64,000 nucleotides of DNA from a virus: IMG/VR virus record IMGVR_UViG_3300045988_164982; one strand, 5' to 3'. The position numbers and the translations under genes are program-made. Position 1 is the stretch's first letter, and each line of letters starts with the position of its first letter. Below the pieces are notes generated by a model. That model was not told the DNA's origin, searched no databases, and was given only the letters and a program-made list of their open reading frames with translations. Positions 20,678 through 21,221 of the stretch are shown one piece after another.

Positions 20678-20699
20678 GTAGCTAAAAACAGCTACATAT
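20678..20699. promoter_or_regulatory. operator-like palindrome TGTAGCTAAAAACAGCTACA (copy A of a recurring site)
   Basis: 6-bp inverted repeat with a conserved 8-nt spacer; the same motif occurs at 31098, 31383 and 47403. Confidence 0.5.
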
Positions 20700-21215
20700 C
20701 AGTAACAAGAATAGTAACATTTCATACTGGTTTGACGGCAACTTGGATTATTGTTAGTTTTCTAGGTTGTTCGTGACAGTGGGGTGCCACCACTTAAAAA
20801 ACGGGGTTTAATTCCGCCCATGCAGAGAAGTGGATTCGCTGTAGTGTGATTGCCTAATGCTTGTGTCCACTACAACGTCAGCAGGTAAAGTGTTCCAAGC
20901 CTGTGTTAGACCTAAGTCTTGATAATGGATATGGTAAAAGGGAACGGGGGCATCGTTAGAGTCGACACGATACTAACTAATGTCGAGGGGGTACATCAGA
21001 TAGGCCAAAGCCAAACTGTCAGAGGCTCGATGACGACAGTAGAAAGATGTATATAGGTCACAAGCAGAACACGGAAACTTGAATGATGTGGCATCTAGGC
21101 AGACTACCTTTTTATCTCCTCGCAGGGGTGGTCTACCACAAAGCCGTTTCTTTCATTCCGAGGCATCTTAAAACTCTACAGTATGGAAGTCAATGCTAAT
21201 TCGTAAAAATGAGGT
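20700..21215 (+). ncRNA. candidate large structured non-coding RNA or leader (~520 nt, ORF-free, GC above surroundings)
   Basis: no ORF of 60 aa or more on either strand; many local hairpins; preceded by operator copy A and a promoter-like region. Confidence 0.2.
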
Positions 21216-21221
21216 GTAAAT

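Follow-up and report, generated by a model that had tools for sequence, protein, structure and literature searches.

The stretch of DNA analysed in this work (the window) comprises 64,000 nt of the IMG/VR virus record IMGVR_UViG_3300045988_164982, and all positions refer to it. It contains an interval of 556 nt (20666-21221), called the block below and bounded by the stop codon of a small gene (20665) and by an ORF starting at 21222, in which no ORF of at least 60 aa is present on either strand; the longest one comprises 45 aa. This is the longest ORF-free gap in the 64-kb window, where three other gaps exceed 250 nt. The G+C content of the block, calculated in 200-nt windows, is 0.435-0.47 vs 0.30-0.39 in both flanks, its GC skew is positive and several G runs are found in it. 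The block is located in the accessory region, between the structural and late genes and the integrase gene (28730-29779). The features of the locus are listed in Table 1.

Table 1. Features of the locus in the order of their positions in the window
Feature	Position	Strand	Remarks
Intrinsic terminator, strong	20347-20384	+	16-pair stem followed by a T run; closes the upstream (late/structural-side) operon
Sigma-70-type promoter, TTGACT-16-TATAAT	20397-20424	+	11/12 matches; TGTAGC operator half-site in the spacer
Small gene	20435-20665	+	76 aa as listed; always directly upstream of the block
Operator-like palindrome / 7-bp hairpin TGTAGCTAAAAACAGCTACA	20677-20696	+	Arms TGTAGCT and AGCTACA, loop AAAAAC; four + strand copies in the window
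Structured RNA element (candidate)	20698-21203	+	~505 nt, 23 predicted helices, 156 pairs
5' hairpin	20698-20731	+	Strongest covariation; ATCAGT/ACTGGT in the window vs CTAAC/GTTAG in relatives
17-pair hairpin	20733-20776	+	Helix 4; all 3 variable pairs change via G·U (A-U/G-U, G-U/A-U, C-G/U-G)
Core multi-branch domain	20838-21182	+	Near-invariant; mostly within the core 20734-21160
Small hairpin	20916-20930	+	C-G to U-A covariation
Three-way junction module	20991-21052	+	Like GEBRO model positions 259-316
RBS GAGGTG and ATG of the downstream ORF	21210-21224	+	Kept even where the body of the ORF is deleted
146-aa ORF	21222-21662	+	Cargo gene nearest to the RNA; five homologs only, each with an identity of 80% or more
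tasA	21704-22513	+	269 aa; NF052498 204.8 bits vs cutoff 100
Dual-repeat TIGR array	22517-23140	+	17 units, each of 36 nt; begins 4 nt past the stop codon of tasA
Terminator-like hairpin CCCCTGT...CATGGGG and T run	23143-23190	+	Read from the sequence, strict scan negative; closes the array

An earlier note on this DNA had described a segment free of ORFs of 60 aa or more on both strands, more balanced in base composition than its flanks, which starts right after an operator palindrome, ends at the RBS of the gene at 21222 and is flanked by no split gene. These claims were borne out by the present analysis, with the palindrome found at the very start of the block, GAGGTG found just past its structured end and both flanking ORFs found to be complete. 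The TTGACT/TATAAT promoter that the note had placed directly before the block is real as well, but its location was wrong: it lies ~250 nt upstream of the block, before the small gene.

The block is noncoding. All three stop codons are present in each of the six frames, so that reassignment of a stop codon opens no ORF in it, and recoding was rejected as an explanation. A pseudogene was rejected too: none of the relatives has an open frame here, and the indels among the copies, of 1, 2 or 3 nt at several sites, are not codon-sized and do not fit a reading frame. The degenerate intron proposed there did not hold up either, since neither group I nor group II models gave a match and the ORFs on the two sides are mutually unrelated in addition to being complete. 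No paralog of the block was found elsewhere in the window; only the palindrome recurs.

The spacer of the promoter 20397-20424 contains its TGTAGC half-site at 20408, and the promoter, including the TGTAG element, is kept in all relatives. Another promoter-like match (20618-20646), situated in the 3' end of the small gene, is not conserved, and no conserved promoter or terminator was detected between the small gene and the block. The transcript carrying the block is probably driven by the promoter 20397-20424.

The 20-nt palindrome TGTAGCYAAAAACAGCTACA is present in four copies, on the + strand each time and with its loop conserved. The copies other than the one at the block are found at 31105, 31376 and 47397, all on the + strand. 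The first two flank a Cro-like gene, opposite the gene encoding a CI-like HTH repressor (30471-30977, - strand), and the third directly follows another promoter. TGTAGC/GCTACA hexamers form clusters at 20408-20691, 31037-31390, 47298-47411 and 57943-58109. That half-sites cluster both in the CI/Cro-like switch and in further promoter regions fits a shared operator, and the pattern of palindrome and half-sites therefore places the block in an operator-controlled unit. The palindrome may also be a nut-like RNA hairpin. In one relative the copy at 20677-20696 (helix 2 of the fold described below) carries a symmetric T-A to C-G change.

The small gene more likely starts at the TTG codon at 20471, preceded by AAGGAGG, which gives a product of 64 aa. 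This product looks ribbon-helix-helix-like, as judged from a weak RelB/DinJ match (E = 0.07). Only 18 homologs of the small gene were found in 5.8 billion proteins, all of them at least 75% identical. On the other side of the block, the 146-aa ORF matched neither protein families nor PDB entries nor defence models, and the AlphaFold prediction for it (pLDDT 38) was unusable. Its VVDIGSNYG stretch resembles, by eye, motif I of SAM-dependent methyltransferases.

Relatives of the block and its coupling to the small gene

Fourteen distinct full-length versions of the block, about 90-100% identical, were collected; further loci were reached via relatives of the two flanking genes, the small gene and the 146-aa ORF. 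Each version fills an ORF-free gap of 556-563 nt, with the small gene on one side and the 146-aa ORF, or what remains of it, on the other, and no locus bearing the block lacks the small gene. The contigs of the relatives are ~89-94 kb long, which suggests a phage genome of such size.

The genes that follow the block vary. In most loci the ORF downstream of it is the same gene, which is deleted in four. Three IMG/VR contigs ~97% identical to the window (L001, L002 and L016) carry the block and share a 405-nt deletion of 21251-21655, which removes most of the 146-aa ORF, so that the block nearly abuts tasA in them; one of these contigs (L016) has also lost most of tasA through an internal deletion. 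A different deletion (~21360-21666) was found in L073. In L032 the small gene, the block and the ORF are followed by a pentapeptide-repeat gene that replaces tasA, and in the tasA-bearing L020 a TnpB insertion-sequence fragment abuts the position equivalent to 21643. Since the cargo differs or is deleted while the block stays, the block travels with the small gene and is followed by a hot spot of cargo exchange, with indels and insertions concentrated between the block and tasA (21251-21666). Judged from the loci compared, the block is shown to be coupled to the small upstream gene and not to any particular cargo.

The family to which the block belongs is very narrow, being confined to a single phage clade in which all copies are at least 90% identical. 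The scan of IMG/VR with a 20-mer from the block returned only the three known contigs. In JGI metagenomes a structure-aware pattern gave 47 matches, of which 46 were chance purine-rich sequences and one was a true homolog. BLAST searches of GenBank phages and PLSDB plasmids found no similar DNA.

Conservation and predicted fold of the block

The core of the block (20734-21160, 427 nt) is 93-95% identical to that of divergent relatives, while in the same comparison the adjacent small gene is 79-82% and the 5' hairpin region of the block ~80% identical. The 149-aa gene upstream is conserved just as strongly as the core. Local variability is distributed as a mosaic over the genomes of these phages, which makes high identity by itself weak, merely suggestive evidence.

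A consensus fold was obtained with RNAalifold from the 14 distinct sequences, and the structure was tested on the same alignment from which it came. In this fold 99.2% of the paired cells are standard pairs, in comparison to 36-44% when the 3' partners were slid by 1-3 columns. Eight pairs are changed on both sides and the score for covariation is 0.088, the slid controls giving 0-2 such pairs and 0.015-0.028, respectively. An alignment of eight sequences gave a matching outcome. More than 20 further pairs vary through G·U only, and G·U pairs constitute 15% of the paired cells. When the same helices are read on the - strand, only 84.5% of the pairing is kept. The share of G·U pairs and the poor pairing on the - strand indicate that the folded molecule has the + strand sense. 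The alignment thus shows a predicted fold kept by compensatory and G·U-mediated changes that work solely on the + strand.

The double changes are concentrated in the outer parts of the structure. In the 5' hairpin (helix 3) they affect four of the six pairs, and in the hairpin 21003-21012 (helix 18), which has a GAAA loop in half of the sequences, GGC/GCC is replaced by AGC/GCU. As all copies are at least 90% identical, covariation is concentrated in four hairpins at the periphery, and the majority of the double changes can be assigned to a single deep split that separates two clades. The core domain would be closed by the long-range helices 20838-20847/21173-21182 and 20851-20855/21161-21165, which are never variable among the copies and are therefore predicted rather than proven.

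Thermodynamic data are less clear-cut. For the whole block the folding energy gives z-scores of -2.24 (+ strand) and -0.61 (- strand), and for the core alone the value (z = -0.62) is no better than for shuffled sequences. The dense hairpins reported in the earlier note are thus only weakly supported by thermodynamics, the real support for structure being comparative: the alignment of relatives, which the note had proposed as a check for covariation, yielded the eight doubly changed pairs described above. Two of the identities put forward there, a large structured ncRNA and a long regulatory leader, are supported by the ORF-free conservation, the strand-specific fold, the compensatory changes and the adjoining RBS. 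Taken together, the comparative support for a candidate RNA family is decent, not decisive.

These data also bear on the possibility that the block is decayed coding sequence or a neutral spacer, conserved through recent common ancestry. The core is better conserved than both immediate neighbours at the same loci, substitutions in the stems keep pairing in 99% of cells and include the eight double changes, open frames are lacking in all relatives, the sizes of the indels do not correspond to codons, and BLAST detected no similarity in GenBank phages or PLSDB plasmids. All of this argues against neutral sequence, which is in keeping with the identity of at least 90% among all copies, with the mosaic variability of the genome and with the ordinary folding energy of the core (z = -0.62). 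On balance we consider a neutral origin improbable.

The neighbouring TIGR-Tas locus

The main context of the block, overlooked by the earlier note, is the TIGR-Tas system next to it. The gene at 21704-22513 scores above the cutoff of the NCBIfam model NF052498 ('TIGR-Tas system RNA-guided endonuclease') and is adjacent to a TIGR array, and its product matches the PDB structures of TasR (9MTY) and TasH. The sole domain of the product is the IS110-type C-terminal domain PF02371; it is a Nop-domain protein without a nuclease domain and, because the nuclease domain is absent, corresponds to what Faure et al. (2025, PMC12045711) call TasA. A dual-repeat TIGR array is defined by two alternating repeats of 8-12 nt and spacers of ~9 nt, arranged in tandem units of 36 nt (PMC12045711). 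In the array at 22517-23140 the edge repeat is about GAGCGAACCA, the loop repeat is about GATAGAAACA and the spacers are 8-9 nt long. The TIGR-TasA locus (21704-23190) is complete and is a new member of the already known TIGR-Tas systems.

Self-targeting by the 17 tigRNA spacer pairs was not indicated: with up to three mismatches and both geometries considered, there were 45 matches vs a mean of 33, and none of them fell in the block. The TasA relatives at 61-68% identity also have dual-repeat arrays, upstream or downstream of the gene, and the block is absent beside them. A scan of genomes for TasA yielded a single Eubacterium MAG, in which the array lies upstream and the block is missing.

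A separate observation concerns the sequence after the array. The segment 23186-23321 (136 nt) is 93% identical to the sequence following a TnpB C-terminal fragment in L020 (224-359), and has the appearance of a remnant (right end or omega RNA) of an element of the IS605 type. The intact TnpB gene present in the window (45838-47058, - strand) is not related to it.

The proximity of tasA raises the possibility that the block is a part of the TIGR-Tas system, i.e. a stem-loop tigRNA array or an accessory RNA of tracr-like or processing function. The block lies upstream of tasA, directly so in three relatives. TIGR arrays occur on either side of tas, and in stem-loop arrays the repeats are not conserved (PMC12045711; Xu et al. 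2026, bioRxiv 10.64898/2026.09.09.750476). Like the arrays and tigRNAs described in these two reports, the block is noncoding, rich in hairpins and next to a tas gene. Unlike them, it has no repeated units and no evident series of spacer pairs flanked by box C/D motifs, and it is independent of tasA in relatives: it is kept without tasA in L032 and, conversely, is missing beside the more distant TasA homologs. Tandem or periodic units and repeat families are absent from it, whereas dual-repeat arrays are typical of this TasA clade and this locus has its own. Because this 17-unit array was found downstream, the block is not the TIGR array of the locus.

The forms of such a part that were considered were rejected. 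A dual-repeat array does not agree with the lack of tandem repeats in the block and with the position of the real array. For a stem-loop array the hairpins of the block are too unequal in size, and they are nested in a multi-branch arrangement and not serial, in addition to being independent of tasA. The two AGTAACA motifs at the 5' end of the block (20700-20719) are not conserved, form part of the covarying hairpin and were dismissed as TIGR loop repeats, similar 10-mers occurring ~47 times elsewhere in the window. A tracr-like anti-repeat role was rejected on the basis of complementarity between the block and the array repeats, which is at the chance level (46/500 shuffles). The block is most probably neither the guide array nor an accessory RNA of the TIGR-Tas system, and we see only a very slight chance that it belongs to this system.

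Known RNA families and the possible role of the block

The window was compared with the covariance models of Rfam 15, the gathering score being used as the criterion. No family reached this score anywhere in the window, including ROOL, GOLLD, HEARO, raiA, OLE, group I and II introns, T-box, RNase P and tmRNA; the families suggested in the earlier note (ROOL, GOLLD, introns and raiA) were thus not confirmed by the scan that it had recommended. A permissive Rfam scan of 20300-21700 gave five matches only, of 13.1-16.3 bits, and ARAGORN detected neither tRNA nor tmRNA.

A weak full-length alignment to DUF805 RNA was noted at ~20776-20833 (2551-2606 of L029), with 14.4 bits (E = 8), the gathering score being 51.1. 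Although a ACCACUUnAAAAACGGGG stretch in it is almost identical, the alignment is probably due to chance.

The local resemblance to GEBRO (RF02988) is confined to 20991-21052, aligned with model positions 259-316 (58 of 350), and scored 14.4-20.4 bits depending on the sub-region searched, the gathering score of 284.7 bits not being reached. GEBRO is a G+C-enriched motif located between the single- and double-strand origins of a rolling-circle plasmid, and it may act as ssDNA (Weinberg et al. 2017, PMC5737381). Like the block, it comprises a few hundred nucleotides with G+C above the surroundings, belongs to a mobile element of bacteria of the Firmicutes type and has no known function (PMC5737381). 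Within the 60-nt junction the topology is the same, the A-rich junction strands and the 13-14-nt loop AG(A)GGCnnGnnGAC are similar, and a GAAA hairpin is present in both. The block differs from GEBRO in its location in an operon of a temperate phage, with no adjacent Rep gene, and in the small part of the model that can be aligned. The resemblance possibly reflects a shared module at most, and not membership of the family.

In line with this resemblance, the block could be a DNA or ssDNA element comparable to the role proposed for the plasmid GEBRO motif, e.g. a replication origin, a single-strand origin or a template for a primer RNA. The local match to a motif that may itself act as ssDNA (PMC5737381), the G+C enrichment, the positive GC skew, the several G runs and the strand-specific fold are all compatible with such a role. 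It is opposed by the size of the match (14-20 bits vs 284.7, 58/350 positions), by the absence of an adjacent Rep or initiator gene and by the accessory location of the block, which has the late operon on one side and the integrase gene on the other. A likelier origin is provided by the AT-rich iteron-like repeats at 37587-37720. We assign a low probability to a DNA element.

The repeats at 37587-37720 lie in the replication-gene region and are arranged in two tandem series (23 nt x 3.3, then 14 nt x 4.1); it is plausible that they constitute the replication origin.

ROOL and GOLLD are, like the block, large structured RNAs of Firmicutes phages and prophages, the function of which is not known (PMC5737381; PMC12286853). 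The block matches neither model even at E values up to 10, has no tRNA genes nearby, occupies the position of an mRNA leader and has a far narrower distribution. Nevertheless, it could act in the manner of these RNAs, as a stand-alone trans-acting ncRNA processed from the operon transcript, with a phage or host partner. Its closed multi-domain architecture with a near-invariant core points in this direction, as do its preservation where the downstream cargo changes or is lost and the fact that its strict partner is the upstream small gene and no gene downstream. That no expression platform was detected also counts in favour of an RNA of this type. It is harder to reconcile with such an RNA that the block has neither a promoter nor a 3' terminator of its own, that it runs into a conserved RBS and start codon retained even in the deletion variants, and that no known family of large ncRNA is matched. 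A trans-acting ncRNA is in our opinion a real but doubtful possibility.

Long structured 5' leaders that act in cis on operons of phages and mobile elements are exemplified by the put RNA of HK022 and by the leaders of other processive antitermination systems. By analogy with leaders of the put type, the block would be situated just past an operator-controlled early promoter and before a multi-gene operon with internal terminator-like hairpins, and would be conserved whichever genes follow. It differs from them in being several times larger and in showing no similarity of sequence or model, and any role in antitermination is putative.

The reading to which we give the highest probability, at about even odds, is that the block specifies a structured RNA of ~505 nt, transcribed from the + strand and representing a new narrow family, which acts in cis as a long 5' leader in a repressor-controlled operon of early or accessory genes. 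The conserved structure lies in the position of a 5' UTR, directly upstream of the RBS, and its structured part ends ~10 nt before GAGGTG. An expression platform was not identified, as there is no terminator at the 3' end of the block and no convincing helix sequestering the RBS; the only helix touching the RBS (helix 1) has three weak pairs. According to this model, a temperate phage of ~90 kb would carry a unit composed of a promoter with TGTAG half-sites, a ribbon-helix-helix-like gene, the palindrome, the RNA, the RBS and exchangeable cargo. Transcription would start at the upstream promoter under the control of the phage repressor, and the primary transcript would comprise, in this order, the small gene, the palindrome, the structured RNA, the 146-aa ORF, tasA, the TIGR array and the terminator. 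The block would then act at the RNA level as a long leader for the cargo downstream, possibly through stabilization of the transcript, through its processing or through resistance to termination.

A more far-reaching proposal is that the block founds a new class of large phage RNAs working together with the small ribbon-helix-helix-like protein, its constant partner; the GEBRO-like junction may be a shared module binding a protein or a polymerase, and the RNA would license the expression or the maintenance of a swappable cassette of accessory genes, RNA-guided systems among them (TIGR-TasA in this locus). This is a speculative idea with a small chance of being correct, and, if true, it would link an RNA motif associated with plasmid replication to the control of accessory genes in phages.

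In terms of novelty, the block is a candidate for a new RNA family among the already known large structured phage RNAs and leaders. If the RNA is real and functional, it would extend the large structured RNAs by a new family, carried by temperate phages of the gut type. To our knowledge, very few families of this kind are known in such phages and none of them is understood. The cis-acting leader would be part of a compact portable unit, comprising a promoter/operator, a small predicted DNA-binding protein and an RNA of ~500 nt, placed in front of a hot spot of accessory-gene exchange occupied by TIGR-TasA, a pentapeptide protein or TnpB insertions. This position could help to explain how natural TIGR-Tas loci are expressed. 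Its present importance is moderate, as a single phage clade carries the family and the function is only deduced. Interest would grow sharply were the RNA shown to work as a separate species that partners the small protein, or were homology of the GEBRO-like module established.

Two other regions of the window deserve a mention. The second ORF-free stretch (57854-58400, 547 nt) has a G+C content of 0.47 and a folding z-score of -3.55 on the minus strand, and it holds four of the TGTAGC/GCTACA half-sites (57943-58109). No Rfam family matches this stretch, which shares no sequence similarity with the block either. On the minus strand it precedes an operon whose last gene (55361-55930) encodes an ArdA antirestriction protein. 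The window opens (1-62) with a perfect 15-nt tandem repeat, GACCCTGATAATCCA, present in 4.1 copies.
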